Positions 2,379-23,297 of a stretch of DNA of 24,000 bases are shown here, in pieces. Position numbers and translations under genes: made by a program. Positions within the stretch are counted from its first letter, which is position 1. Each line of letters opens with the position of its first letter. This DNA is from a bacterium (GTDB lineage Bacteria; Patescibacteriota; Minisyncoccia; Phycocordibacterales; UBA6899), in the NCBI GenBank assembly GCA_043742365.1, contig JAYTYM010000065.1:11909-35908 (forward strand), read 5' to 3'. Under the pieces are notes generated by a model. It saw only the letters and a program-made list of their open reading frames with translations, was not told the DNA's origin and did not search any database.

Positions 2379-2798
2379 ATGAAAGTCAGAAAGCTTAATT
2401 TTGGGTATATTTTTCGATTTGAAAAAGGGGATGAACTCATGTCTACCTTAGTGAAATTCATCTCTGACAATCAGAAACCTTTTGCTTCGTTCACACTCAT
2501 TGGTGCGACCACTGATGTGGAGTTGGGATTTTTCTCACTAAAAGACAAGGCATATCACTGGAGAAACTTCACTGGTGAATTTGAGATCGTGGGAGGTGTG
2601 GGTAATATTTCTCTTTATGAAGAAAAACCGATGATACATCTGCATATTACAATTGCCGACGATGAATACCGGGCATACGGTGGGCACGTTAGGAAACTCA
2701 TCGTAGGAGCAACGTGCGAGCTTACCCTTTTTACATCGAAGGTGGAGATTGAGCGCAAATTTGATGAGGGGACAGGACTGAATTTATTGGAGGTGTAA
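2379..2798 (+). CDS. PPC (DUF296) domain protein
   Basis: About 139 aa starting at MKVRKLNFGYIFRFEKGDEL. The pattern LIGA..vELgf......f.G.fEI..l.GNIs....p..HLH....d......GGHv is typical of the PPC/DUF296 fold. The upstream part of ORF 2292 runs through the ald terminator and is discarded. Confidence 0.65.
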   Translation: MKVRKLNFGYIFRFEKGDELMSTLVKFISDNQKPFASFTLIGATTDVELGFFSLKDKAYHWRNFTGEFEIVGGVGNISLYEEKPMIHLHITIADDEYRAYGGHVRKLIVGATCELTLFTSKVEIERKFDEGTGLNLLEV

Positions 2799-2805
2799 AA
2801 TATCA

Positions 2806-2914
2806 TTTTAGCAGGGACTCTCGCCTTACAGGCGCTGTACATCCTTCGTATTTCGCAGGCGAAATATACTTAGGGTCTTCGAGCCCTGCCGCAAGCTTTG
2901 CTTGCTTGGGGGCA
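2806..2914. repeat. Family-A tRNA-3'-end-linked structured module, tRNA-Lys copy
   Basis: Read on the minus strand: TGCCCCCAA (revcomp of the acceptor 3' strand), hairpin GCAAGC/GCTTGC, GCAGGGCTCGAAGAC (revcomp of the T arm), long hairpin CCTAAGTATATTTCG..CGAAATACGAAGG, ATGTAC, hairpin CGCC-TGTAA-GGCG, then GAGTCCCTGCT (a degenerate copy of the tRNA's GAGCCCTGCT). Confidence 0.6.
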
Positions 2915-2918
2915 CAGC

Positions 2919-2942
2919 AAAAAACCGCTTACGCGGTTTTTT
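2919..2942. terminator. Bidirectional hairpin terminator between the module and tRNA-Lys
   Basis: AAAAAACCGC-ttac-GCGGTTTTTT, with an A-run on one side and a T-run on the other. Confidence 0.6.
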
Positions 2943-2947
2943 CCTGA

Positions 2948-3020
2948 TGCCCCCAGCAGGGCTCGAACCTGCGACCGTTAGCTTAAAAGGCTACTGCTCT
3001 ACCAGCTGAGCTATAGGGGC
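2948..3020 (-). tRNA. tRNA-Lys (anticodon UUU)
   Basis: The reverse complement folds as a cloverleaf. Acceptor is GCCCCTA/TGGGGGC, anticodon loop CTTTTAA, T arm GCAGGTTCGAGCCCTGC. CCA is not encoded. Confidence 0.93.
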
Positions 3021-3057
3021 ATTTATTTCTTAATTACAATTCTTTAGACCTCTCCAG

Positions 3058-3171
3058 TTTACCCTGATACCTACCAAAACAGCATATAGCGGCATTACTT
3101 GCTCACACTAACAAATTACTGACTACTTCACTTTACCCTGATACCTACCAAAACAGCACATAGGGGTATTT
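3058..3171 (-). repeat. Two tandem 74-bp units upstream of tRNA-Lys, each a degenerate copy of the tRNA 5' part
   Basis: 3058-3097 and 3132-3171 share tttaccctgatacctaccaaaacagca(t/c)atag(c/g)gg(c/t)att. Their reverse complements (GCCGCTATATGCTGTTTTGGTAGGTATCAGGG and ACCCCTATGTGCTGTTTTGGTAGGTATCAGGG) align to the tRNA-Lys 5' end GCCCCTATAGCTCAGCTGGTAGAGCAGTAGCC. Confidence 0.55.
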
Positions 3172-3218
3172 ATTATCCAAAAGGGAATATGTGGAGATTA
3201 GCACAACCTCTGGGTTTT

Positions 3219-3596
3219 TTAAAGAGGAAGATCGAATGCGTGAGGACCGGCACCAAGGAAAAGCAGAGAAAGCGATACTACCCCAAGCAAAAGATAATAT
3301 TTTACTGTTTCAGGCGTAAACGACGCATTCTTGTTTTTGAAATAGATAGCCAACAGCGAAAGGGTGAATCCAATGACCCCAACTACTTGAACGTATAGGC
3401 CAAGGAAAAATCCCAAGCTAAGTAAAATGATGAGCGTTCCGAGTATCAACCACGCAAGACTTTCCTGACCACTCTTCGCGTGGCTAGAGCGCATGAAGCT
3501 GTATCCAATGAAGAAAAAGTAAAAACCCAAGAATATACGGAATATAAAAGGCACATACCAGCCCCAGTCGAGTAATTGTGGAAATAGTGACAACAT
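3219..3596 (-). CDS. Small four-TM membrane protein, DoxX-like
   Basis: 125 aa with four hydrophobic segments. The C-terminal GAGPHAFD resembles the DoxX GAGxxSxD ending. Assignment is by pattern only. Confidence 0.5.
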   Translation of the reverse strand: MLSLFPQLLDWGWYVPFIFRIFLGFYFFFIGYSFMRSSHAKSGQESLAWLILGTLIILLSLGFFLGLYVQVVGVIGFTLSLLAIYFKNKNASFTPETVKYYLLLGVVSLSLLFLGAGPHAFDLPL

Positions 3597-3650
3597 GCTT
3601 TGTATTATATCATGAGAAAATTCATCTATTAATGACCGTCAAATTACTCT

Positions 3651-4136
3651 ATGAAAGATACTGATGTAAAAAATATTCATGTGTTACTTCATGACATCCG
3701 CAGCGCACATAATGTCGGGTCTATGTTTCGTACTGCAGATGCAATAGGGGTAAGCAGTGTCTTCCTTTCAGGTCACACCCCATGCCCACTTGATAGATTC
3801 GGTCGTCCTGTAGCCGAGATTGCGAAGACCGCACTCGGGGCTGAGCAAAGCATAAGCTGGTCTTATGAAAAAGACCCAATTAAAGTCATAACCCAACACA
3901 AGGAATTAGGATATGCCATCGTAGGACTTGAACAAGATGAGCGAGCGGTTGACTATAAACAATTCTCCGCAACAAATAAAGTACTCTTTCTTGTAGGAAG
4001 CGAAGTGTTGGGGATTTCGAGCGAGATTAAAGAGCATTGCGACGTGCTTATCGAGATACCCATGCACGGTAAAAAAGAGTCTCTCAATGTCGCTGTTGCA
4101 TTCGGTATTGCCATGTTTCGACTTTTCGATAAATAA
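3651..4136 (+). CDS. SpoU/TrmH-family RNA 2'-O-methyltransferase
   Basis: SPOUT motifs are present: RSAHNVGSMFRTADAIG, LVGSEVLGIS and IPMHGKKESLNVAVAFGI. Confidence 0.85.
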   Translation: MKDTDVKNIHVLLHDIRSAHNVGSMFRTADAIGVSSVFLSGHTPCPLDRFGRPVAEIAKTALGAEQSISWSYEKDPIKVITQHKELGYAIVGLEQDERAVDYKQFSATNKVLFLVGSEVLGISSEIKEHCDVLIEIPMHGKKESLNVAVAFGIAMFRLFDK

Positions 4137-4149
4137 ATGACTGGGTAAA

Positions 4150-4292
4150 AAAAGAACCCCAATGCATGAGCATCGGGGCGGGAGTGGTTCCTATTTGTTG
4201 TTGCTTTACGCCGCCGTTTCGGGCGGGAGATGGATCACCCCCTTTCTATCGCGGGGAGGGCCCCGCTACCTGACTTTTTTAAGTATATTAAG
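4150..4292 (+). ncRNA. GC-rich structured intergenic segment (candidate small RNA or compound terminator)
   Basis: It lies between convergent genes in an AT-leaning genome. Hairpins are CCCCAATGC/GCATCGGGG, CCGCC-gtttcg-GGCGG and GCGGGG-aggg-CCCCGC, followed 7 nt later by CTTTTTT. GGGCGGGAG occurs twice. No family was recognised. Confidence 0.25.
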
Positions 4293-4305
4293 TCAACGGT
4301 ATCCG

Positions 4306-5589
4306 TCAAGCCCTTTGAGATGAAAGCAACTCCTTAAGTACTTTTCGTGCCACATCGCGGTCATCCCACGGAGTTTTCTTGCCATTCTCCTCCATAATAA
4401 AGGGATCAGTTCCTTTTCCTGTTATGAGTACAGCGGTATTTTGAGAGGCGTTCGCAAGTAGGATTGCATGAGCTATTGCATCTTTGCGGTCAACGATGAG
4501 TTGGGGTTTCTTGCTTTTCATTCCGAGCGCCATTGCTTCCATTATCTGCTTTGGGTCCTCATCGTATGGGTCCTCATTTGTAAGAATAATCTCTTTGCAG
4601 TACTCATCAGCGATACTTCCCATTACCGGCCTTTTCCACGTATCGCGGCCTCCGCCAGTGTTTCCAAGTACGCAGATCTTGTCATGATCTTTGAAAGTCT
4701 CATATACAGCGCGCAAAGAGTCTGGAGTATGCGCGTAATCGACAATTACCGGAAAATCCTGACCCTCTTCGATGCGCTCCATTCGTCCTTCTATCTGAAC
4801 AGTTTTCTCTATGCCACGCACGATCACTTCATCAGAGATATTTAAGGCTCGGGCTGCTGTGGCTGCACCGAGGATATTGTAGGCATTAAAGAGACCCGGT
4901 AGGGGCGAGCGTGCGACATGGCCTCGCCACTCTAGTGTCGTGCCATTTTCAGTTGATTCGACGGCTCCGCCATCATTTATCGCAAATGGAATCGGCGTGA
5001 TGTTGGGTAATTCAAGGAAATAGTGCGCTTTCTTGTCATCGCTATTTGCGACCATGAATCGCTTTGATTTGATTGAGCGACTGAGTGTGCGACCAATAGA
5101 AAGCTTCGCATCACGATAAGCTTCATATGAACCATGTGATTCGATATGCTCTGGTGCGAGGTTGGTGAAGATGAGCATGTCCATGTCTATGAATCGTTGC
5201 CTGAACTGTTTCGCGCCTTCTGAGGTCATCTCAAGTATTGCGTGCGTGCACTCTGCATCGACTGCGTCTCGGATAAATTTTTGTACAAAAAACCGCCCTG
5301 GAATGGTCATCTTGCGCATATTGCGAACACTCTTGTCTCCTATTTTAAAGCGTAGCGTACCTAAGACAGCAGTCTTTGCACCGCTTTCTTCTAGGATGTT
5401 GTTTAATATCTCAGTTGTGCTCGTTTTTCCTTTTGTTCCTGTGACGAGAATGACGCTAATATGTCGTGATGGAAAGCGATAACGCACTGCACCCGCAAGC
5501 GAAAGCAAAAAATGATACGTAGGTTGCAGTGATCGATATACTCGCTTTGGTATCAATGTTTCGATTTTGCGTAGGCTCCTTTCAAGCAT
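4306..5589 (-). CDS. murE: Mur ligase, MurE-like (UDP-MurNAc-tripeptide synthetase)
   Basis: ATP-binding motif VTGTKGKTST is present, along with TNLAPEHIESHG, DYAHTPDSL and TNEDPYDEDP, which are typical of MurE. I prefer the start at ATG 5589 (MLERSL); the alternative at 5634 would overlap the upstream gene. Confidence 0.75.
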   Translation of the reverse strand: MLERSLRKIETLIPKRVYRSLQPTYHFLLSLAGAVRYRFPSRHISVILVTGTKGKTSTTEILNNILEESGAKTAVLGTLRFKIGDKSVRNMRKMTIPGRFFVQKFIRDAVDAECTHAILEMTSEGAKQFRQRFIDMDMLIFTNLAPEHIESHGSYEAYRDAKLSIGRTLSRSIKSKRFMVANSDDKKAHYFLELPNITPIPFAINDGGAVESTENGTTLEWRGHVARSPLPGLFNAYNILGAATAARALNISDEVIVRGIEKTVQIEGRMERIEEGQDFPVIVDYAHTPDSLRAVYETFKDHDKICVLGNTGGGRDTWKRPVMGSIADEYCKEIILTNEDPYDEDPKQIMEAMALGMKSKKPQLIVDRKDAIAHAILLANASQNTAVLITGKGTDPFIMEENGKKTPWDDRDVARKVLKELLSSQRA

Positions 5590-5621
5590 TTCCGCATCAT
5601 AACACAGGAGTGCAAAGCAAT

Positions 5622-7463
5622 TTAAGGAAGCCAATCCCAGAAGAGGGTGTAGGTGGAACTAATAGGAGCAGCAAATTGGATGGTCGAAACATTAAGATAA
5701 TACGTACGGTTCAGTTGCAGGACACAGATTCCGGGACCCCCTGCGCTGGTTGTTATCTTGATGTTTACCTGCGTCGTTCCGAGTGATCCACCGTTACCAC
5801 AGAAACCAGAGACGTTCTTTCCGGGCGAAGGAACTGTCGCTGCCCCTGAAGAAAGATCGCCAGGCATTTCACTTATTGAAGCAAGGACATCTGCGGGTAA
5901 GACAATTAAGGGACAAACAGGACCAAAGCCAAAGTCAGGACAGACAGGAGGTGGACCAGGGCAAAGCGCAAGATCAAGTGAAGCGGGAACGGGGAATTCG
6001 GGCTCGTCTCCGCCTACGATGTGGATCGCGCCGCCTCCAGTAGGGGAAGTGATCTTAAATGCGTATGAGTCGACGGTTACCGCGGTGGTTACCGCTTTGC
6101 CATTTGCGGGTCGACAAAGTGGTGGATTAGGAGGTGCTCCCAATAGTGCAGGTAATGCGTAGCAGGTCGTCGTCGCACTCGAAGTACACGCTGCCTGAAC
6201 TTCAATCGCCACCTTCTTCGTCGTGCAATTATTTGCGGGGTCGCAAACTTTCACTGACAATTGATGGAAACCGACCTTTGTAGTGTCGAGATTCATTAGC
6301 ACAGTCCTCGTCATTGCTGGAGTTGGACATGTCCCACTCGAACAGATACTTGTGGAAAAGAATATGCCGCCACCTGGGTTAAGTGTCTCTGCGCTTGCGC
6401 GATCGATGGCGAAATTATCTGTAGCGGTAAATGTAAGCGACACAACTCCCGATGTTGTTGCGAGGCCCACTACAGGCTGGGTGATGATGACAACGGGGGG
6501 AGTGATATCTGAGTCATTATCAAGAATGGTCACCACAACTGAGGGTATGCTTCCGAGTATCAAAGCGCCCGTTGGATTGAATAGGTTTACTGTAAATTGT
6601 TCATTGGGCTCAGTGATTATATCGTTAAGGATAGGCACCGTTATGGTGAGTGTTGAGACTGCAGCAGGAAACACGAGCGTTCCCGAAACCGCACCAAAGT
6701 CACTTCCTGCAATTGCAGTCCCCGACACCGTTGTGTAGTCAATGGTTCCCGCACCCAGACCCACGCGCTTGACCACAAGTACAATGCTTCCTCCACCCTC
6801 GTTCACGGAAGCAGTTGAAACGAGGAACGATACGGAAGGAATTATCACGGGGGGTACAATTGGAGGGGCAGGTGGCGGTAAAAGCGGAGTAGGAACTGGA
6901 GGGGGAAGCCCGACGGGAGGTGGGGGAGGAATGGGGATATCGACGTAGCGGCAGCAAATATCTCCGATCATGGGGGGAGGACCGGCACAAAATGCAGGCG
7001 CTACACTAGAAACGATCTTTCCAACGATAGAAGGACAAGTAGGGCCGGGTTTCCAGCTGTAGGTACCGGATGGTGGAGGAGGTGGGGTAGGAGCCCCGAC
7101 GACCGCAGGGGCCACAGAAAGTGTTGCATCATTTTTGAGCAACAAGGGGTTGATCGTGTTAAGCAAAAGCCATGAACCCACTGCAAGCAAGATGCCCAAT
7201 ATGGCATTCGTGATACATTTTTTTGCCTCACTCTTTCCTCCTGCCGAACCTGAGCCCATCAGTCGTATGCCGCAGATAACGATCATGATGACCGCAAGCA
7301 CCCCAGTAATTCCAATGAGCGTTTGAAATATTCCCTGAACATATTGCGTAAGTGTCACTGTTCCAGGAAGTGTTCCGACAGGGGCGAGGAGGTCATAGGT
7401 AGCAGGCGCTGCAAGTGCGACTGCGGGAAGAAATGATAAAAGTAAAATTGTGATCTTTCTCAT
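5622..7463 (-). CDS. Exported fusion protein: VirB2/TrbC-like pilin N-terminus, Pro-rich linkers, Calx-beta domain, Cys-rich C-terminal region
   Basis: Signal peptide MRKITILLLSFLPAVALA is followed by a two-helix hydrophobic hairpin (GIFQTLIGITGVLAVIMIVICG...NAILGILLAVGSWLLL) like T4SS pilins. PPPPP tracts follow. The Calx-beta signature is VNEGGGSIVLVVKRVG..IDYTTVSGTAIAGSDF..GTLVFPA..TLTITVPILND...EPNEQFTVNL. Confidence 0.7.
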   Translation of the reverse strand: MRKITILLLSFLPAVALAAPATYDLLAPVGTLPGTVTLTQYVQGIFQTLIGITGVLAVIMIVICGIRLMGSGSAGGKSEAKKCITNAILGILLAVGSWLLLNTINPLLLKNDATLSVAPAVVGAPTPPPPPSGTYSWKPGPTCPSIVGKIVSSVAPAFCAGPPPMIGDICCRYVDIPIPPPPPVGLPPPVPTPLLPPPAPPIVPPVIIPSVSFLVSTASVNEGGGSIVLVVKRVGLGAGTIDYTTVSGTAIAGSDFGAVSGTLVFPAAVSTLTITVPILNDIITEPNEQFTVNLFNPTGALILGSIPSVVVTILDNDSDITPPVVIITQPVVGLATTSGVVSLTFTATDNFAIDRASAETLNPGGGIFFSTSICSSGTCPTPAMTRTVLMNLDTTKVGFHQLSVKVCDPANNCTTKKVAIEVQAACTSSATTTCYALPALLGAPPNPPLCRPANGKAVTTAVTVDSYAFKITSPTGGGAIHIVGGDEPEFPVPASLDLALCPGPPPVCPDFGFGPVCPLIVLPADVLASISEMPGDLSSGAATVPSPGKNVSGFCGNGGSLGTTQVNIKITTSAGGPGICVLQLNRTYYLNVSTIQFAAPISSTYTLFWDWLP

Positions 7464-7468
7464 AAAAT

Positions 7469-8044
7469 TTATTTGCGCCCTCCAAGAGTTTGAAGTGCTT
7501 TACGGATAATATCTTGAGTGGTCATGGATTCTTTGGCGAGCATTCGGACTAATTCTCGTGTGTCTTTGGGTGAGTACCCGAGCGCCTCGAGAGCATCGAG
7601 CGCTTCTGTTTCAGGTAAGGCTACACCACCTTCACGCTGGGTAATGTTTCCCATCTTATCTCGGAGTTCAAGGATGATCTTCTCTGCGAGCTTTTTTCCA
7701 ATACCTGAAACCTTGGTCATATACTCACTTTCACCGCTTGCAATGGCTGTAGCGAGGGTCGTGACATCAGCAAGTGCGAGGACACTCAACGCGCTTTTCG
7801 GTCCGATACCTGATATTCCGATAAGCAGACGAAAAAGTGCTATTTCGTCTCGCTTGCTAAAGCCATACAGATCAAGCGCATCTTCTTTGACCACCAAGTG
7901 TGTCCACAGACTGACTTTCTCGCCTTCTTTTGTGCTCTGCGCTGTTGCAGGTGTCACAGAGAGGGTATAGCCAAGGCCTCCCACATCCACGATAACAACG
8001 CGCTCTTCCTTAAACAGTACAGTGCCTGTGATGTGACCAATCAT
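7469..8044 (-). CDS. ruvA: Holliday junction DNA helicase subunit RuvA
   Basis: N-terminus MIGHITGTVLFKEERVVIVDVGGLGYTLSV. HhH motifs are GISGIGPKSA and VSGIGKKLAEKI. Length is 191 aa. Confidence 0.92.
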   Translation of the reverse strand: MIGHITGTVLFKEERVVIVDVGGLGYTLSVTPATAQSTKEGEKVSLWTHLVVKEDALDLYGFSKRDEIALFRLLIGISGIGPKSALSVLALADVTTLATAIASGESEYMTKVSGIGKKLAEKIILELRDKMGNITQREGGVALPETEALDALEALGYSPKDTRELVRMLAKESMTTQDIIRKALQTLGGRK

Positions 8045-8188
8045 ATATACCCTAATTATACTCTATTCTCGATGATTGATACTAACAATTTTGCCATAAA
8101 ACACGCTCGGTTACGGCTATATGCATGAGTCCTTGTTTTTAATAAAGAGACTTGCGTTTTTACAGCCCATCCTGTAGGATTCTCGATT

Positions 8189-8464
8189 ATGGCTATAACC
8201 TCATCAGCGAAACGAGCGATCCGCACAGCGTCACGACGCCACCTCTTTAACTTGCGCCGACTCGATACAATGCGAGACGATATTAAATCCATTAAAAAAA
8301 TGGTCGCAGAAAAGAAATTTACCGAAGCTGAGAAAGCACTTTCTCAAGTTTACAAGTCTATAGATAAGGCTGCAAAGCGCGGAGTGATCAAAAAGAACAC
8401 TGCTGCTCGAAAAAAGTCTCGCGTCGTACTTCTCATAAGAAAACAGTCAACGAAAGCAAAGTAA
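8189..8464 (+). CDS. rpsT: 30S ribosomal protein S20
   Basis: 91 aa, basic, with the pattern SAKRAIRTASRR....R......K and AAKRGVIKKNTAARKKSR. Confidence 0.9.
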   Translation: MAITSSAKRAIRTASRRHLFNLRRLDTMRDDIKSIKKMVAEKKFTEAEKALSQVYKSIDKAAKRGVIKKNTAARKKSRVVLLIRKQSTKAK

Positions 8465-8474
8465 AGATTTTTGA

Positions 8475-8506
8475 AAACAACCCCATCGCAAGATGGGGTT
8501 GTTTTG
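8475..8506. terminator. Bidirectional terminator between rpsT and the response regulator
   Basis: AAAACAACCCCATC-gcaa-GATGGGGTTGTTTT. Confidence 0.7.
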
Positions 8507-8516
8507 TTGTGCACCA

Positions 8517-8918
8517 CTAAGCGCCCGCCGCCGCTGTCTTCTCATCGTGAGCAATTTGGCTCTCAACCATCTCTGCAACTTCGTGCGGCAGAATATTGGA
8601 CTTAATAAGGTATGAAGTTGCGCCGAGCTTTACTCCTCTTTCGATCTCATCTCTACCACCAAGATTTGAAAGGATGATCACCGGGATCTTTGTTGTTTCT
8701 GGGTCAGACTTAAGTCTCTCAAGAATCTCAAACCCGCCCATGTCGGGAAGCATGATATCAAGAAGGATCAGATCGGGCTGTTCAAGTTTTGCTTTGGCCA
8801 AGCCATCAGCGCCTGTTCCAGCGGTAATAACTGAAAATCCCGTCTCGATCAATTTGCCGGAAACAAGACTTGAAAGAAAGGCATCGTCTTCAATTGAGAG
8901 AACTTTTTTCGTATCCAT
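8517..8918 (-). CDS. Single-domain response regulator (CheY-like receiver)
   Basis: Receiver motifs are KVLSIEDD, DLILLDIMLPDMGGFE, IPVIILSN and KSN. There is no output domain. Start chosen at ATG 8918 (MDTKKVL). Confidence 0.85.
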   Translation of the reverse strand: MDTKKVLSIEDDAFLSSLVSGKLIETGFSVITAGTGADGLAKAKLEQPDLILLDIMLPDMGGFEILERLKSDPETTKIPVIILSNLGGRDEIERGVKLGATSYLIKSNILPHEVAEMVESQIAHDEKTAAAGA

Positions 8919-9080
8919 ATTATTCATACAGTATAACGGGGAAGAGGGTGAATGCAAAGATGAGAAATGTTGAGATGTGCGTAGTCGTGGAATGGGTGCG
9001 TCATAAAACGCTTTTGACCTAAGTATCCTGAACTCTTCAGTGTGGTCGATTTATAAAATCTTTAATGTCCTAATTTTGCC

Positions 9081-9300
9081 GGGGAAGCTCCATTACATGG
9101 ACGGTACACCTTTCGTATTTCGCACCACGGAGAGTACTTAAAAATTACAGTACTCGAGAGCCGTAGGCACTCGCATTCTTCAAAGTGGATTACCGCTAAG
9201 AAGAATTGGGTCGCTCGATGTCATGTTTAGTCGAAGACGAAATATATTCAAGGTTTTCGATAGGATATCTCTGCTTAAAGCAGAAGTACCTCTTTCCCAT
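9081..9300. repeat. Family-A module, distal copy at the tRNA-Arg(GCG) locus, interrupted
   Basis: 9090-9122 matches 9367-9399 with 1 mismatch in 33 nt. 9232-9261 matches 9398-9427 with 1 mismatch in 30 nt. The two halves are separated by 109 extra nt. Confidence 0.55.
9123..9231. mobile_element. 109-nt insertion in the apex of hairpin 2 of the distal module (family-B-like sequence)
   Basis: The intact paralog reads cgtatttcgaagacgaaata (9391-9410). The interrupted copy reads cgtatttcg-[109 nt]-cgaagacgaaata, with CG on both sides. The insert carries agagtactt-N8-cagtactcgag, which also occurs at 21052-21079. Confidence 0.5.
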
Positions 9301-9330
9301 TTACTAAGGATAAGAATCCTTCATAAATAT

Positions 9331-9466
9331 GGGTGAAGGGCTTCGATTCCTCGATAGGAGTATCTTCCATTACGTGGACGGTACACCTTTCGTATTTCGA
9401 AGACGAAATATACTCAAGGTTTTCGATTCCTATTCAGAAGCCGAGCAGTTGGCTTCTTCTCGGGCA
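9331..9466. repeat. Family-A module, proximal copy at the tRNA-Arg(GCG) locus
   Basis: Minus strand reads TGCCCGA, GAAGAAGCCAACTGCTCGGCTTC hairpin, ATAGGAATCGAAAACCTT, GAGTATATTTCG-tctt-CGAAATACGAAAGG, TGTAC, CCA-CGTAA-TGG, then TCCTATCGAGG (a copy of the tRNA T-stem/acceptor). Confidence 0.6.
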
Positions 9467-9513
9467 TGTTATACAAAAAGACAGCACAATGTGCTGTCTT
9501 TTTGTATAACATG
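9465..9513. repeat. Perfect 23-bp inverted repeat with a 3-nt loop, probably a bidirectional terminator
   Basis: 9465-9487 (catgttatacaaaaagacagcac) is the exact reverse complement of 9491-9513, with loop aat. The right arm overlaps the last 2 nt of tRNA-Arg. Confidence 0.8.
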
Positions 9514-9583
9514 CCCTCGATAGGAATCGAACCTATATTTAAAGTTCCGCAAACTTTTGTCCTATCCATTGAACGACGAGGAC
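9512..9583 (-). tRNA. tRNA-Arg (anticodon GCG)
   Basis: Reverse complement is GTCCTCG-TC-GTTC-AATGGATA-GGAC-A-AAAGT-TTGCGGA-ACTTT-AAAT-ATAGG-TTCGATT-CCTAT-CGAGGGC-A. All four stems pair. Confidence 0.88.
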
Positions 9584-11494: not shown

Positions 11495-11603
11495 TTGTCA
11501 CAGTAGAGAGGAGAGAAAGTGCCTCGCGGAACTTTCAGGTGAGATTCGAAAGACTTTTCGATGCCGATTCAGAGAGGCCGAAAAGTACCTGCCGATGTAA
11601 TCG
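11495..11603. repeat. Family-A module, tRNA-Ser copy
   Basis: Plus strand reads GAGAGGAGA, GAAAGTGCCTCGCGGAACTTTC hairpin, AGGTGAGATTCGAAAGAC (revcomp of the T arm), CTTTTCG..CGAAAAG hairpin, TAC, GCCGA-TGTAA-TCGGC, and then direct repeat 2 of the tRNA end. Confidence 0.55.
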
Positions 11604-11604
11604 G

Positions 11605-11683
11605 CGAATCTCACCTCCTCCACATTGGGATAAATTGTTTATATTCGAATGTCACCTCCCCCGCACCGGGACAAAATTTACAG
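11605..11683 (+). repeat. Second and third direct copies of the tRNA-Ser 3' end plus trailer
   Basis: cgaatctcacctcctccGcattgggaCaaattAtttat (11457-) compared with cgaatctcacctcctccAcattgggaTaaattGtttat (11605-). A third, more diverged copy is ttcgaatgtcacctcccccgcaccgggacaaaattt (11644-). Confidence 0.7.
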
Positions 11684-15240: not shown

Positions 15241-15378
15241 GTGGGCGATAGAGGATATTCGACCCCTACTGGGTCAGTACACCTTTGCCATTTTTTCAGA
15301 TTAGGAAATCTTCAAAAATAAGGCAGAAGGTTTTCGAATCCTCTAGCGAAAGCCACGCAGGTGGCTTTCTTCGCCCAC
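15241..15378. repeat. Family-A module, tRNA-Val copy (best preserved)
   Basis: 15241-15256 gtgggcgatagaggat is identical to 15408-15423. Minus strand reads GTGGGCG, GAAAGCCAC-ctgc-GTGGCTTTC, TAGAGGATTCGAAAA, CCTTCTGCC...GGCAAAGG, TGTAC, GACCC-agta-GGGGTC, GAATATCCTCTATCGCCCAC. Confidence 0.7.
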
Positions 15379-15408
15379 GACAAAGGCCACCTGACGGTGG
15401 CCTTCTTG
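15379..15408. terminator. Hairpin terminator between the module and tRNA-Val
   Basis: AAGGCCACC-tgac-GGTGGCCTT (15383-15404). Confidence 0.6.
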
Positions 15409-15762: not shown

Positions 15763-15780
15763 AGCTTGATCCGGCCGGAG

Positions 15781-15905
15781 TGATGTTGCGAGTCCTCGAG
15801 AAACCACGAGGCGAGGTCACGAGCACTTAACAGAATTCAAGCGCAGCGAAGAATTATGTTTAGTGACTTGGGGCACTATGCGAAGTTCAATGCCAAGGTA
15901 TCATG
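15781..15905. repeat. Family-B repeat copy downstream of tRNA-Arg(UCU)
   Basis: ggtcacgagcactta / gcgcagcgaa / ttagtgacttg / ggcactatgcgaa / ccaaggt parallel ggtcgcaagtactta / gcgaagcgaa / ttagtaacttg / ggcactttcgcga / ccttggt at 20595-20682, in the same order. Confidence 0.45.
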
Positions 15906-20525: not shown

Positions 20526-21121
20526 GCCCAAGAGAGGACTTGAAAGACGGAGGCGGTCTACGATTTCGCTTTGCGAAATTGTCGCCGAGTCGGGGTCGCA
20601 AGTACTTATGAGCGAAGCGAATTAGTAACTTGTGACCAAGTCCTCTACAGGCACTTTCGCGAGAGGACTTGAAAACCTTGGTGCGACCAAATTTTTCTTT
20701 GATGTCCTCATCTTAGAAAAATTGAAGTACTCTTGTGGTGATGTTTTGGCTTTGCAAAACCACCAAGGTGTACCGTCCCCGTAGGGGAAAAGTCCTAACT
20801 TGAAAGACGGAGCCTATGTTTCGCCAGCGACCAAAAACTCTTGAGCGTAGCGATTAGAGATTTGAAGTACTCCTGTGGTGCATGCGAAACCGCGAGCGAC
20901 ATTATTTGCTTATGAGCTAGCGAATTTAGCAAATAAGACGTGCCTGTGGCGCGGGGTCGCAGAAATTTCTGAGCGACCAAAAGTATGCGACCAGAGTGAG
21001 ATAAAATTGGAAGCACTCTTTGTGGTGTGGCGACAAAAAAATATCACTACAAGAGTACTTCCAAATTTCAGTACTCGAGGACACGATGAAGTTTTAGGTC
21101 GCTGTGACAAAGTCCTCCACA
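20526..21121. repeat. Series of three tRNA-Leu(GAG)-linked modules (families A and B), each ending in a copy of the T-arm 3' half
   Basis: AAGTCCT(C/A) occurs at 20462 (the tRNA), 20638, 20790 and 21110. The inverted tRNA end tagcccaagagaggacttgaa is at 20526. The 15-mer acttgaaagacggag is at 20538 and 20798. gcgaccaaa..ttgaagtactcYtgtggtg recurs with a period of about 145 bp. Confidence 0.6.
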
Positions 21122-21149: not shown

Positions 21150-21671
21150 CTATTCACTGACTACAGTTACAAATTCAACTGCCGTCTTTGGTTCCACAAA
21201 GAACTTTTCTGTTTGTGTATAGCGAACTCCTTGAATCTGCGGCTTTTCTTTTAATAGCGCTTCTTTGTCGATGGATTCTATGTTGCGGATATATTTCGTC
21301 AGCTCAAGACTCTTGAGAATGTCTAGGATCTTTTCATCGCCGCCACGTCCGGCAGTCACCTTAGGCGGAGTCAGTCTCCACCCGAATATCCCCGAAGAAA
21401 GAGTGACTGTTTTCTTGTCGGCAGCAAGTAATTCTTGCCGATGCTTCACTGCGAATAGTTTGATATTCACTACATGATTTGCAGTTTGTGCCTGAAGTGG
21501 TTTTATCGCCGCATCTGCTTCTTGGCGCAATGTCGCAACTTTTTCTGCAAGTTCGCGTTCGATAGTTTCGGTTGAGCGTACCAGAATACCCACAATGTGT
21601 AGGACGCCATTTGCCTCATCGATGTTTTGTATAGGATGAATAGGGGTCGATTTTTTTGCTCGGCTCATCAT
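21150..21671 (-). CDS. gam: Phage Mu Gam-like host-nuclease inhibitor (DNA-end-binding) protein
   Basis: 173 aa. The segment GIFGWRLTPPKVTAGRGGDEKILDILKSLELTKYIRNIESIDKEALLKEKP parallels Mu Gam GDVSWRVRPPSVSIRGMDAVMETLERLGLQRFIRTKQEINKEAILLEP (recalled from memory). The N-terminal half is coiled-coil. Confidence 0.8.
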   Translation of the reverse strand: MMSRAKKSTPIHPIQNIDEANGVLHIVGILVRSTETIERELAEKVATLRQEADAAIKPLQAQTANHVVNIKLFAVKHRQELLAADKKTVTLSSGIFGWRLTPPKVTAGRGGDEKILDILKSLELTKYIRNIESIDKEALLKEKPQIQGVRYTQTEKFFVEPKTAVEFVTVVSE

Positions 21672-21811
21672 ATGCTCCTCGTCGGAAATTCAAAAGAATA
21701 CTCCATAATGTATATTTGCATACACTAATGATTCTGCCGTGAATTCTCCTTGCACTTTTCACGTTGAAGAGTAGTTTATGTGCAGGCTCTTTTTTATATT
21801 AAGGATGAACA

Positions 21812-22834
21812 ATGGAAACGAACATCGTCTCTCTGCCGCACATCACGCAATACCACGCTTCGATCCAGAATCCACACTTTGACGTTGATCTCGTTACAAC
21901 GAACATTTTTGAAAAGCACGGGCAAGTGATAATGATCGATCCAAGGCGGGTGCAGCCGCTGTCTGATCAGCCTCGCCAAAGCTCGAACCCCGGATTCAGT
22001 CTCGAGTCGATTGCCGCACTTTCGATGTGTATTAGTGCTGAAGGCCAGATCGAACCGGCACTCATTGCTCCGCCGACCAAGTCGGGGTGGGACGCAGCTC
22101 TCGTTGATGGCGAACGCAGGCATCGCGCGTGCCTGCATGGCAACATGATGCTTATGGCGCGCGTTGACTTGAGCATCACGAACCCAGAAGAGCACTTCGT
22201 GAAATCAGTGATGGCCAATTTCCACAGGGAAGGCCATACGTGCATCGAGATCATGTATGCGGTTAAGCGTATGCAGACAACTCGCACGAGAGAGCAGATC
22301 GCTACCGTCTTTGGTCGCTCTGTGCAATGGGTGGATCTACATATCTCGCTCATGCGACTCGACGAAGCGCTACACCCATTTCTTGTCGATCAAGAAGTAG
22401 AGCAAGAGGGTGATGGCACAGGCGAGCAAGTCGAAATCAAAAAGCGAGGTCGCAAGCAAACGGGTAAGCTGACATTTCAGCTCGCTCTTGTTATTTCTGG
22501 TTTGCCCAAAAGCGATCAGATGAATGTCGCCAAGGAGGTGCTTGGTAAACGAATGCCCTACGATGTAGCCCGCAGATACGTATTGCGCTATATCGACGAC
22601 AACGGCATTGTTACGAAATATTCGAAGCGTTCGCCGAGCGAGTCATTTCAGTCGCTTGAAAAAGCGGCTGGTACCGCTGAAAATAAATTTGGTGTTTTCA
22701 TCGACAAGAATCCGCGCACACTTCGTGAACTTTTTGATACTCAGTCCCCGATGGACCGTAGATTGCTTGCAGAAAAGCTCCGACTTCTAAGTGTAGATAT
22801 TTCGTCACTTGCGGATATCCTGTCACCTCAGTGA
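21812..22834 (+). CDS. ParB/Sulfiredoxin N-terminal domain protein with HTH (ParB/KorB-like); no ParA partner
   Basis: A ParB box is present (ALVDGERRHRAC). An HTH-like segment follows (TREQIATVFGRSVQWVDLHISLMRL). Length is 340 aa. It is transcribed divergently from gam. Confidence 0.75.
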   Translation: METNIVSLPHITQYHASIQNPHFDVDLVTTNIFEKHGQVIMIDPRRVQPLSDQPRQSSNPGFSLESIAALSMCISAEGQIEPALIAPPTKSGWDAALVDGERRHRACLHGNMMLMARVDLSITNPEEHFVKSVMANFHREGHTCIEIMYAVKRMQTTRTREQIATVFGRSVQWVDLHISLMRLDEALHPFLVDQEVEQEGDGTGEQVEIKKRGRKQTGKLTFQLALVISGLPKSDQMNVAKEVLGKRMPYDVARRYVLRYIDDNGIVTKYSKRSPSESFQSLEKAAGTAENKFGVFIDKNPRTLRELFDTQSPMDRRLLAEKLRLLSVDISSLADILSPQ

Positions 22835-22873: not shown

Positions 22874-22909
22874 GTAAGTCGTAAAAACAATCTCTGCTTG
22901 CGAAGTGAG

Positions 22910-22991
22910 TGGGCGTGGGGAGACTCGAACTCCCAACCCTTACGGGATACGCTTCTGAGACGTACGCGTATACCAATTCCGCCACACGCCC
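22910..22991 (-). tRNA. tRNA-Leu (anticodon CAG), long variable arm
   Basis: Reverse complement: acceptor GGGCGTG/CACGCCC, anticodon arm TACGT-CTCAGAA-GCGTA, variable arm TCCCGTAAGGGTT, T arm GGGAGTTCGAGTCTCCC. Confidence 0.92.
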
Positions 22992-22993
22992 AC

Positions 22994-23297
22994 TCACCAC
23001 ACAAACTTTCTATACTCCGCTCCTGAGACGTACGCGACTATATTCTTTTGCAATTCCCCCACACGCCCACTCACCACACAAACTTTCTATACTCCGCTCC
23101 TGAGACGTACGCGACCATATTTATTTGCAGTTCCTCCTCACACTCACTGCACAAGTTCTCTATGATTACGTTTATTAGACGTAAGCGACTATATTCTTTT
23201 GCAATTTCACCACAAACCCAGATGTTCCAATAACATTTATGCTTCGATTCTAAGGCGTACGAGACCTCATTCTTTGGCAGTTCCCCCTTCTAGTCAC
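22994..23297 (-). repeat. Tandem array (4 units, 74-77 bp) of degenerating copies of the tRNA-Leu(CAG) upstream spacer plus 5' two-thirds
   Basis: Units start at 23023, 23100, 23174 and 23250, and each resembles 22955-22993 of the real gene. The 29-nt spacer tcaccacacaaactttctatactccgctc is identical at 22994 and 23071. Similarity decays with distance from the gene. Confidence 0.75.

Follow-up and report, generated by a model that had tools for sequence, protein, structure and literature searches.

Downstream of the tRNA-Arg(GCG) gene in a 24,000-nt stretch of a patescibacterial genome (NCBI GenBank assembly GCA_043742365.1, contig JAYTYM010000065.1, positions 11,909 to 35,908; here called the window), small structured modules built around copies of the tRNA 3′ end follow one another, and the outermost of them is interrupted by a second repeat, unit C. 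We favor, with moderate confidence, the interpretation that this locus is a pile-up of nested, non-autonomous small insertion elements at the 3′ end of tRNA-Arg(GCG). A preliminary description of the locus had noted two tandem modules and an insert in the distal one; our comparisons support its interpretation in part, and it missed that the modules themselves may be insertions tied to the 3′ end of their own tRNA.

The final ~20 nt of tRNA-Arg(GCG), comprising the T-loop, the 3′ strand of the T-stem and the 3′ strand of the acceptor stem, are the stretch that the modules copy. An apical hairpin couples the terminal bases of the tRNA (GGGC) to an antisense acceptor segment (GCCC), and its inner part, an A-tract, a stem and a T-tract, is like a bidirectional terminator. 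Coordinates of these and all other features are given in Table 1. M1, next to the tRNA, is an intact type-1 module. The distal module, M3, has lost its tRNA-matching arms: hairpin A and the antisense arm are absent, the 3′ flank (cttccccggca) has no match to tRNA-Arg, and the alignment to a covariance model built from 45 family members (CM R1) covers model positions 44-113 only, with a 126-nt unaligned stretch in hairpin 2. The flank, at 9070-9088, resembles the 3′ end of tRNA-Leu(TAG) of other Paceibacteria (...ctccccggcac in L066; L-numbers are labels of the collected loci carrying modules or unit C). M3 may have arisen at another tRNA, although the 8-nt match could be due to chance.

Between M1 and M3 we recognized the parts of a degenerate copy, M2: a leader remnant (ggaatcgaa-gccc), then a long hairpin followed by GTAC, a small tttaa-loop hairpin, and finally atcctatcga, which copies the tRNA 3′ end in sense and abuts the M3 core directly. 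M2 was read by eye against the type-4-like cores of L058 and L113. Because of its weak CM match and because its sense arm is joined to the distal core, we read the locus as three modules in series, the middle one tentatively. The proximal and distal copies described earlier are real, but the locus probably holds three modules rather than two.

M3 matches M1 on both sides of the insert, as had been reported, with 1 mismatch in 34 nt between 9089-9122 and 9366-9399 and 1 in 31 nt between 9231-9261 and 9397-9427, both by repeat finder and by direct comparison; the string cgtatttcgaagacgaaata is found at 9391-9410 in the proximal copy. The split does fall in the apical loop of hairpin 2, the break lying at the edge of the 4-nt loop (tatttcg-tctt-cgaaata in tRNA sense). 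Both matches in the proximal copy include the same TCG, and the distal copy therefore has an excess of 108 nt (9123-9230) with TCG on each side, or 111 nt counting one TCG. The extra DNA is therefore real, but it is not 109 nt long with a CG duplication, and a 2-bp target duplication finds no support: the junction ambiguity is 3 nt, TCG, and other copies are inconsistent (GGTG at 20684, none evident at 20824). M3 is a filled site when compared both with its paralog and with the family, where 129 of 131 modules have a hairpin 2 of 18-44 nt and both outliers belong to the window. With the insert, the canonical P3/hairpin 2 of M3 is no longer formed in the minimum-free-energy fold.

A 19-nt 5′ extension stands before the unit C parts of the insert, which are GCGACC-CAA, a ttcttc/gaagaa stem whose loop is ttagcggtaatccacttt, a further hairpin (gagtact...agtactc), and AAGTACTC-TCC-GTGGTG, an end motif that three other copies in the window have in common with it. 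The motif that the preliminary description had seen in both the insert and 21052-21079 is real (25 of 28 nt). The unit C hidden Markov model (HMM) did not reach E 1e-3 on the Arg insert, which we therefore assigned to unit C on the shared termini and loop motif. Unit C is a second, dispersed hairpin-bearing repeat, ~55 nt long. The pattern GCGACCNAA-N15-45-GAAGTACTC-N2-3-GTRGTG matched at least 120 metagenome stretches, and an alignment of 48 sequences has invariant GCGACC and GAAGTACTC-NN-GTGGTG termini around a covarying hairpin of 5-7 bp. Copies occur singly, in head-to-tail tandems (7) and in inverted pairs, with no consistent target duplication. A perfect stem of at least 6 bp flanks 14% of copies versus 1.8% of controls, and 22% of copies lie within 500 nt of a tRNA, about twice the ~10% estimated from the tRNA density of the loci. 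Searches of Rfam with six unit C loci, at gathering and permissive E-values, gave no family match, and there was no transposase or RAYT within 1.5 kb of 161 copies.

Because the insert is not unique, with four further copies in the window besides those in metagenomes, and because hairpin 2 of the Leu(GAG) module in the related locus L059 lacks the insert, the claim that these sequences were moved or copied is upheld. The enlarged Leu(GAG) hairpin 2 in the window holds a unit C copy (20684-20740) that the L059 ortholog is without. The idea that hairpin 2 is the cargo site did not survive: only 2 of the 5 window copies are there, and the rest are in hairpins of another module type, an opposed pair (20971-21104, an inverted repeat) taking the place of the second hairpin of the same type-2 module that holds 20824-20880. 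Nor do all insertions sit in hairpin-2 loops, since metagenomic type-1 hairpin 2 holds 1 of 121 pattern-matched copies. Unit C was also seen in type-1 hairpin 2 in L156 and in type-2 hairpins in L126, L154, L164 and L170.

The modules form a family of wide reach. The type-1 pattern GAAAACCTT-N15-45-AAGGTGTACNG-N5-GTA matched at least 120 stretches in the genome collection, where ~2 would be expected by chance according to our estimate. Nearly all matches were in metagenome-assembled genomes (MAGs) of Patescibacteria (Paceibacteria, Kaiser-, Taylor-, Nomura- and Zambryskibacteria), with further ones in MAGs auto-labelled 'uncultured Candidatus Saccharibacteria'. In the window the covariance model picks out six type-1 modules, each running in the direction of its tRNA. 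Family members lie 25-115 nt downstream of a tRNA or tmRNA-like gene, again co-oriented, and are read from it in the same order: usually an apical hairpin; the acceptor 3′ strand in antisense; hairpin A with its AG...CGUG closure; the antisense of the T-stem 3′ strand and T-loop; GAAA; P3 with the variable hairpin 2, which often has tandem G.A pairs; GUGUACNG; hairpin 3 with loop nGUAn; and the sense copy, which takes in some of the T-loop, the T-stem 3′ strand and more or less of the acceptor strand, this last part often truncated. A conserved small hairpin, aaGCGTACTCGCgg, is inserted so as to part the T-loop remnant of the sense copy from its T-stem 3′ strand, with 22 occurrences at 19 loci (for example L050, L071, L082, L085 and L093).

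Hairpin A, P3 and hairpin 3 covary. In a model-guided alignment of 125 sequences, 96.1% of cells were paired and there were 439 double-sided changes, counts that lean toward the model because the alignment was fitted to its structure; none of 500 shuffles reached the observed values, and sliding the partner strand lowered pairing to 17-56%. Wobble pairs make up only ~1.5% of paired cells, with G.T outnumbering A.C on the tRNA-sense strand by 28 to 10 (one ambiguous pair set aside), and the junction bases are conserved and unpaired. Rfam 15, searched with the Arg and Leu regions at gathering and permissive E-values, returned only the tRNAs and generic hairpin (miRNA-model) noise on palindromes, and we found no description of the module or unit C in the open-access full-text literature. 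Our best reading is that both are undescribed families, while tRNA-targeting insertion with a regenerated target is already known as a strategy.

We also investigated how closely each module is tied to the tRNA beside it. Among 112 modules with enough upstream sequence, 81 lay within 130 nt downstream of a called tRNA, 11 were behind other modules or a more distant tRNA, and 20 were orphans, many of them behind tRNA-like 3′ ends missed by ARAGORN, one such end being tmRNA-like (...CCATCTCCACCA). Type-1 modules with matching arms after such missed ends were seen at L045 (~3330-3544), L004, L017, L051 and L110, and one of the uncalled ends was tmRNA-like with an encoded CCA (...ccatctccacca). 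The module-bearing tRNAs represent 15 amino-acid identities. A co-oriented type-1 module lay downstream of 94 of 189 tRNAs, an upper bound because the loci were chosen for holding a module, and the opposite orientation was seen only once.

The arms follow the neighboring tRNA base by base. The median longest exact match was 11 nt between the sense copy and the adjacent tRNA versus 5 nt for a random other tRNA, and 9 nt versus 5 nt for the antisense copy. When the 14 nt ending at GAA were reverse-complemented, a mean of 11.5 positions matched the T-loop/T-stem of the tRNA versus 8.4 for the module's own 3′ copy; the antisense arm was closer to the tRNA in 66 of 81 cases and the reverse held in none. 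In one genome, tRNA-Lys TTT and CTT differ by one T-loop base and both arms of their modules differ there, with hardly any difference between the cores; a third core of that genome, nearly the same again, stands behind tRNA-Arg(GCG). The antisense acceptor segment matched at 8 or more of 9 positions in 42 of 94 module-bearing tRNAs versus 6 of 86 without a detected module. The 5′ arm is the reverse complement of the T-loop and T-stem 3′ strand even where the T-loop is not palindromic (Leu agaggacttgaa; Arg ataggaatcgaa), and it is therefore true antisense, not a degenerate sense half of a tRNA. The same matches eliminate a degenerate tRNA or tRNA-like structure, which neither ARAGORN nor Rfam calls, and reverse-transcribed tRNA copies are eliminated since sense and antisense copies both lack CCA or TGG. 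At five loci (L007, L018, L019, L076 and L116) the sequence ...gattccaattt-gaac-ta-n-tagggtcac stands before the terminator where the T arm of tRNA-Glu is expected, and the antisense arm of the module still fits a canonical tRNA-Glu T arm; the tRNA-Glu may be disrupted or unusual there.

Comparison of related genomes revealed the presence and absence of a module at one site. The window and L059 (JAYTUL010000025.1) are syntenic, their nucleotide identity being 81-88%. The tRNA-Val(TAC) of L059 has no module and is directly followed by ccagagacagaggcactccgtaggagtg, the window homolog of which is set back by 160 nt, behind the displaced tRNA 3′ copy (...cctctatcgcccac); the site is filled in the window and in L055. 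The direct repeat of the tRNA 3′ end spans 14-24 nt and begins in the T-loop. The Val site matches the signature of a regenerated target plus a displaced fragment that tRNA/tmRNA islands leave (PMC4383910), here on a scale of ~110-190 nt and with no genes. Between the window and L055, identity reaches 98.5% for the Val module (135 of 137 positions), 100% for the tRNA itself and 93% for the apical hairpin, versus 74-80% for the flanking genes and 51-60% for the flanking spacers. Orthologous Leu(GAG) modules, compared between the window and L059, have drifted apart in sequence and show compensatory changes in hairpin 3, and so the Val case resembles either recent transfer or very strong constraint.

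Tandem runs are frequent, at 13 doublets plus one triplet. The displaced copy in L005 leads into a new terminator hairpin, after which come an antisense acceptor segment and a type-2 core. The apical hairpin that separates tRNA and module has the form of a bidirectional intrinsic terminator in 37 of 54 loci, as would suit an element that carries both a replacement 3′ end and a terminator of its own; it sits poorly with obligatory co-transcription.

The link to the tRNA is not peculiar to one core. Of 197 tRNAs, 93 had an antisense copy (at least 11 of 12 positions) of their own T-loop/T-stem within 200 nt downstream. Besides type 1 (AACCTT..., with variants in which P3 is flipped) we distinguished type 2 (AGACGGAG-hairpin-CGAGGCGGGGTCGC-hairpin-TGTGACC), type 3 (CAGATTCACGG...CGTGAATCTG) and a type-4-like core (GCCCGATTGAG...), and every type closes with a sense copy of the tRNA T-stem. 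A tRNA-matched address is common to at least four core types, and the cores are interchangeable. The type-2 module directly behind tRNA-Leu(GAG) has the antisense, then GAAAGACGGAG...CGGGGTCGC...TGTGACC, then the sense copy aagtcctct.

Table 1. Positions in the window of the tRNA-Arg(GCG) locus, the other modules and the unit C copies (CM, covariance model).
Feature	Position	Strand	Support and remarks
tRNA-Arg(GCG)	9512-9583	minus	ARAGORN; Rfam tRNA 58.6 bits; modules downstream, read in tRNA sense
Apical hairpin after tRNA-Arg	9462-9516	minus	perfect 27+27-nt palindrome, 100% complementary (repeat finder)
Module M1, intact type-1	9347-9467	minus	CM 80.4 bits, E 3.5e-19; arms match tRNA
M1 antisense acceptor	9459-9465	minus	approximate, read from sequence
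M1 hairpin A	9436-9457	minus	approximate, read from sequence
M1 exact antisense of T-loop and T-stem 3′ strand, ataggaatcgaa	9422-9433	minus	approximate
M1 P3/hairpin 2	9385-9421	minus	approximate
M1 GTAC	9381-9384	minus	approximate
M1 hairpin 3, loop cGTAa	9366-9378	minus	approximate
M1 sense copy of tRNA 3′ end	9349-9365	minus	approximate
Module M2, weak degenerate middle copy, tentative	~9262-9350	minus	CM match 9271-9346, 11.6 bits, E 0.2, not significant alone
Module M3, distal type-1 core (GAAAACCTT ... AAGGTGTACCG, hairpin 3 tcca-tgtaa-tgga)	9089-9257	minus	CM 25.3 bits, E 6e-5
Nested insert in M3 hairpin 2, expanded unit C	9123-9230	minus	shared termini and loop motif; TCG both sides
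Type-1 module behind tRNA-Val(TAC), best preserved	15243-15379	minus	CM 95.5 bits; cross-genome empty site
Type-1 module behind tRNA-Lys(TTT)	2803-2915	minus	CM 49.7 bits
Type-1b module behind tRNA-Ser(TGA)	11505-11623	plus	CM 41.3 bits
Type-1 module, Leu(GAG)	20640-20807	plus	CM 41.5 bits
Type-2 module behind tRNA-Leu(GAG)	20526-20650	plus	19/19 antisense of tRNA 3′ end
Type-2 module	~20795-21118		holds three unit C copies
Type-2-like core without antisense T arm, downstream of tRNA-Arg(TCT)	~15773-15870		
Unit C inside Leu(GAG) type-1 hairpin 2	20684-20740	plus	nhmmer E 3.7e-8; L059 hairpin without it (GGTG-ATG)
Unit C, apical loop of first hairpin of type-2 module	20824-20880	plus	nhmmer E 1.4e-12; L059 hairpin without it
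Unit C	20971-21027	plus	nhmmer E 1.5e-7; half of opposed pair
Unit C	21045-21104	minus	nhmmer E 1.2e-7; half of opposed pair

The insertion model that we favor would work at the DNA level by the logic of tRNA/tmRNA-targeting elements. A crossover near the T-loop would place the element behind an intact tRNA and ahead of a displaced 3′ copy, with both the replacement 3′ end and the terminator coming from the element; the inverted arm of the element would fold the single strand back into a duplex copy of the target, and a putative recombinase acting in trans would do the work. Whether the outer elements are indeed non-autonomous, mobilized in trans and joined by a crossover near the T-loop we consider about an even call. 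Template-switch correction in hairpins would maintain the perfect complementarity of the arms; such correction of quasi-palindromes could account for the near-absence of wobble pairs, instead of selection at the RNA level. In the history that this model suggests, M1 next to the tRNA has stayed intact, M2 and M3 farther out have decayed, and unit C would later have entered the hairpin 2 loop of M3.

Several observations weigh against the insertion model. The empty Val site of L059 need not be ancestral and could have arisen by deletion between the direct repeats, and the near-identity of the Val module could equally reflect strong purifying selection. One sequence-specific recombinase would need to serve at least 15 tRNA identities, and the model offers no explanation for how an element gains the arms for a new tRNA. 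At L047 (3182-3437 and downstream), L014 and L015, the terminator, antisense acceptor, hairpin A and antisense T arm recur almost exactly after the displaced copy and the repeat then diverges at the expected start of the core, a leader without a core that simple insertion fails to explain. No integrase, transposase or reverse transcriptase recurs within 2.5 kb of modules at 119 loci or near unit C, where only housekeeping families recur; Pfam searches of the window open reading frames (ORFs) gave no transposase or integrase, and the modules, at 110-190 nt, have no ORF. The type-1 pattern had 0 matches in 2.9 million viral contigs (IMG/VR), and we saw no free or circular form of the module. Finally, the core has the traits of a functional RNA, with three covarying helices, conserved junction bases, tandem G.A pairs and an excess of G.T over A.C.

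These traits suit a different account, which we regard as somewhat unlikely, that the modules are structured noncoding RNAs read through from the tRNA promoter and acting in tRNA biology. The antisense leader would pair with the last 20 nt of the tRNA and the sense copy would compete, giving a three-segment switch on folding, 3′ processing or quality control, with the alternative cores as effector or sensor domains and unit C as a loop expansion tolerated in a dead copy. The strict co-orientation with the tRNA speaks for this account, as does an antisense arm that follows the real tRNA and not the internal copy, and the Val module is as conserved as a tRNA. The predicted read-through fold closes the tRNA body with the distal copy while the leader sequesters the proximal 3′ end, and so a switch is plausible as modeled, but an essential role is made less likely by the terminator, the patchiness of the distribution and the existence of several cores. 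About half of the tRNAs have no module at all, nor does the orthologous tRNA-Val of L059; several unrelated cores occupy the same slot; the 3′ copy often stops short in its acceptor part; wobble pairs are unusually scarce for an RNA family; and no promoter of the module's own was seen. Among known structures, the three-way junction strands misfit a hammerhead by eye (no CUGANGA, and 8 nt rather than 1 nt before hairpin 3), the G.A pairs of hairpin 2 lack the 3-nt bulge of a kink-turn, and group I and group II introns are of the wrong size and gave no Rfam matches.

An origin without mobility or function, by local duplication of the tRNA 3′ end, unequal crossing-over, template-switch 'palindrome correction', gene conversion and vertical inheritance, strikes us as improbable, although it would readily yield tandem arrays, perfect Watson-Crick stems and partial second copies such as the repeated terminator and leader of L047, L014 and L015, and tandem 5′ halves of tRNAs upstream of tRNA-Leu(CAG) and tRNA-Lys indicate that duplication at tRNA flanks is active in the window. 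It leaves unaccounted for a conserved core behind at least 15 tRNA identities in at least 120 species-level genomes, nearly identical cores at different tRNAs of one genome, a Val module far closer between genomes than its flanking genes, and unit C at at least 120 unrelated loci. That the tandem arrangement or the insert is a repeat-caused assembly artefact is scarcely credible. Because an independent Logan contig (SRR23617267_208356, L121) stops exactly at the junction 9122/9123, the assembly graph branches there; yet a branch is expected anyway, with the 34-nt flank repeated 277 nt away, the contig is 100% identical to window 2643-9122 over 6,480 nt, and tandem modules and unit C in module hairpins recur in unrelated assemblies (L156, L126). 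An exact look-up of three neighboring proteins gave no record for two, and the third led to a contig ending at the insert junction.

The insertion model has a bolder version, which we consider unlikely, in which the modules are a new class of programmable homing micro-elements: a conserved scaffold, one of several core types, with a bipartite antisense address of ~20 nt open to rewriting to suit whichever tRNA or tmRNA is the target. A putative trans-acting enzyme would read the address as RNA or as folded single-stranded DNA and insert the element precisely behind the matching gene, which would be preserved, and the same mobilome would include unit C as a second element, one that seeks out hairpin loops.

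The closest parallels are the tRNA/tmRNA-targeting integrative elements, namely genomic islands and prophages with tyrosine integrases (Islander database, PMC4383910), which likewise take the 3′ part of the target, restore the gene and leave the displaced 3′ fragment as a downstream direct repeat; the repeat starting in the T-loop, the fixed orientation and the tandem accretion at one tRNA are also alike. The modules differ in being ~110-190 nt and not kilobases, in having no integrase or gene, in their covarying cores and at least 15 tRNA identities, and in carrying an exact inverted copy of the target split by a hairpin. The T-loop 'sublocation' sites of integrative elements were reportedly described by Williams in 2002. 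The CTX-phage attP(+), other Xer-exploiting elements and the integron attC are folded single-strand recombination sites, and the modules resemble them in inverted arms that rebuild a duplex target, a side branch or extrahelical features on the stem, a variable apex and insertion arrays. The antisense arm of the modules is an exact complement (the mean of 11.5 in 14 coming from local alignment), to which the acceptor strand is added; unlike in those sites the target is the 3′ end of a tRNA, not dif or attI, and the likeness of the core to dif or attC amounts to loose resemblances by eye (ATGTAA in the hairpin 3 loop, GGTG...).

Unit C calls to mind the bacterial miniature repeats REP/REPIN, BOX, RUP, Correia and the Rickettsia palindromic elements. 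Like repeats of the REP/REPIN type it is ~55 nt long, noncoding and extragenic, with conserved termini round a covarying hairpin, and occurs as singlets, tandems and inverted doublets, and like miniature repeats it can sit inside other RNA-like elements; it differs from them in having no sequence similarity, no terminal inverted repeats and no consistent target duplication, and in its enrichment in apical loops. Among tRNA-like structures are the tRNA-like domain of tmRNA, YrlA and the plant mitochondrial t-elements. The outer helix of the module mirrors the acceptor/T-stem stack with the discriminator as these do, but its 5′ strand is true T-loop antisense and the T-loop is paired, not looped. 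Guide-bearing mobile elements include the type V-K CRISPR-associated transposons with a homing spacer, IS110 with its bridge RNA and TnpB with its omega RNA; a target-complementary stretch, orientation-specific insertion downstream of a tRNA and retargeting by a matching segment are what the modules have in common with them. Unlike such elements, the modules have no effector gene at the loci examined and no Rfam guide-scaffold match, and their antisense and sense segments cover the same positions and pair mutually. In the arrays of Tas-associated TIGR systems, for which, as for IS110, PMC12045711 provides the context, 36-nt units with alternating 8-12-nt repeats and ~9-nt spacers stand beside a Nop-domain gene (PMC12045711); the unit sizes here (~130 and ~55 nt), the layout and the neighboring genes do not fit these arrays.

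As a whole, the window has the look of a Patescibacteria (CPR) chromosome: seven scattered tRNA genes, all without an encoded CCA, share the stretch with small housekeeping genes (by Pfam on the ORFs, adenylate kinase, Mur ligase, RuvA, RuvX, PilM, UppS and L19) and a T4SS-pilin/Calx-beta protein. The anticodon GCG of tRNA-Arg at 9512-9583, in place of the usual bacterial ACG, recurs in L001, L048, L056, L102 and L113. After the Ser module, 11605-11683 holds two more copies of the tRNA-Ser 3′ end with the start of the downstream hairpin (92% and 76% identical), which look like stacked displaced fragments. Where the window has a single type-2-like core at ~15773-15870, L059 has two in tandem (4400-4658), each preceded by the same terminator hairpin. 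Upstream of tRNA-Leu(CAG) (22909-22991), 22974-23296 (minus-strand sense) is made up of four to five tandem units of ~77 nt, each with a promoter-like tatagaaag and the 5′ part of the tRNA from the acceptor 5′ strand to the anticodon loop, the D region being altered; the orthologous place in L059 has one unit more. Two 74-nt tandem units like the 5′ half of tRNA-Lys, 86% identical to each other, lie at 3047-3170 upstream of tRNA-Lys (2946-3021). Between the two tRNA-Leu genes, 21150-22834 carries a Mu Gam-like gene and a weak ParB_N-like gene (under the Pfam cut-off), and the same interval measures ~760 nt in L059 versus ~2,420 nt, with a small gene on the other strand that reads as helix-turn-helix-like. 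By this comparison, 21150-22834 is a variable island adjoining the module array.

Among the loci selected for modules, about half of the tRNA genes carry one, yet there is no Rfam family for them. If the modules are mobile, they would be the smallest known elements to restore a tRNA and displace its 3′ end, and the first with a built-in exact antisense copy of the target; they would point to structure-guided or guide-based recombination, with relevance to programmable insertion. As RNAs, the modules would instead make up a large family, new to science, of cis elements specific to tRNAs in minimal-genome organisms. Either way, the modules explain assembly breaks at tRNA loci, provide markers for strain-level variation, and call for caution in taking repeats at tRNA flanks as the ends of genomic islands in these genomes.

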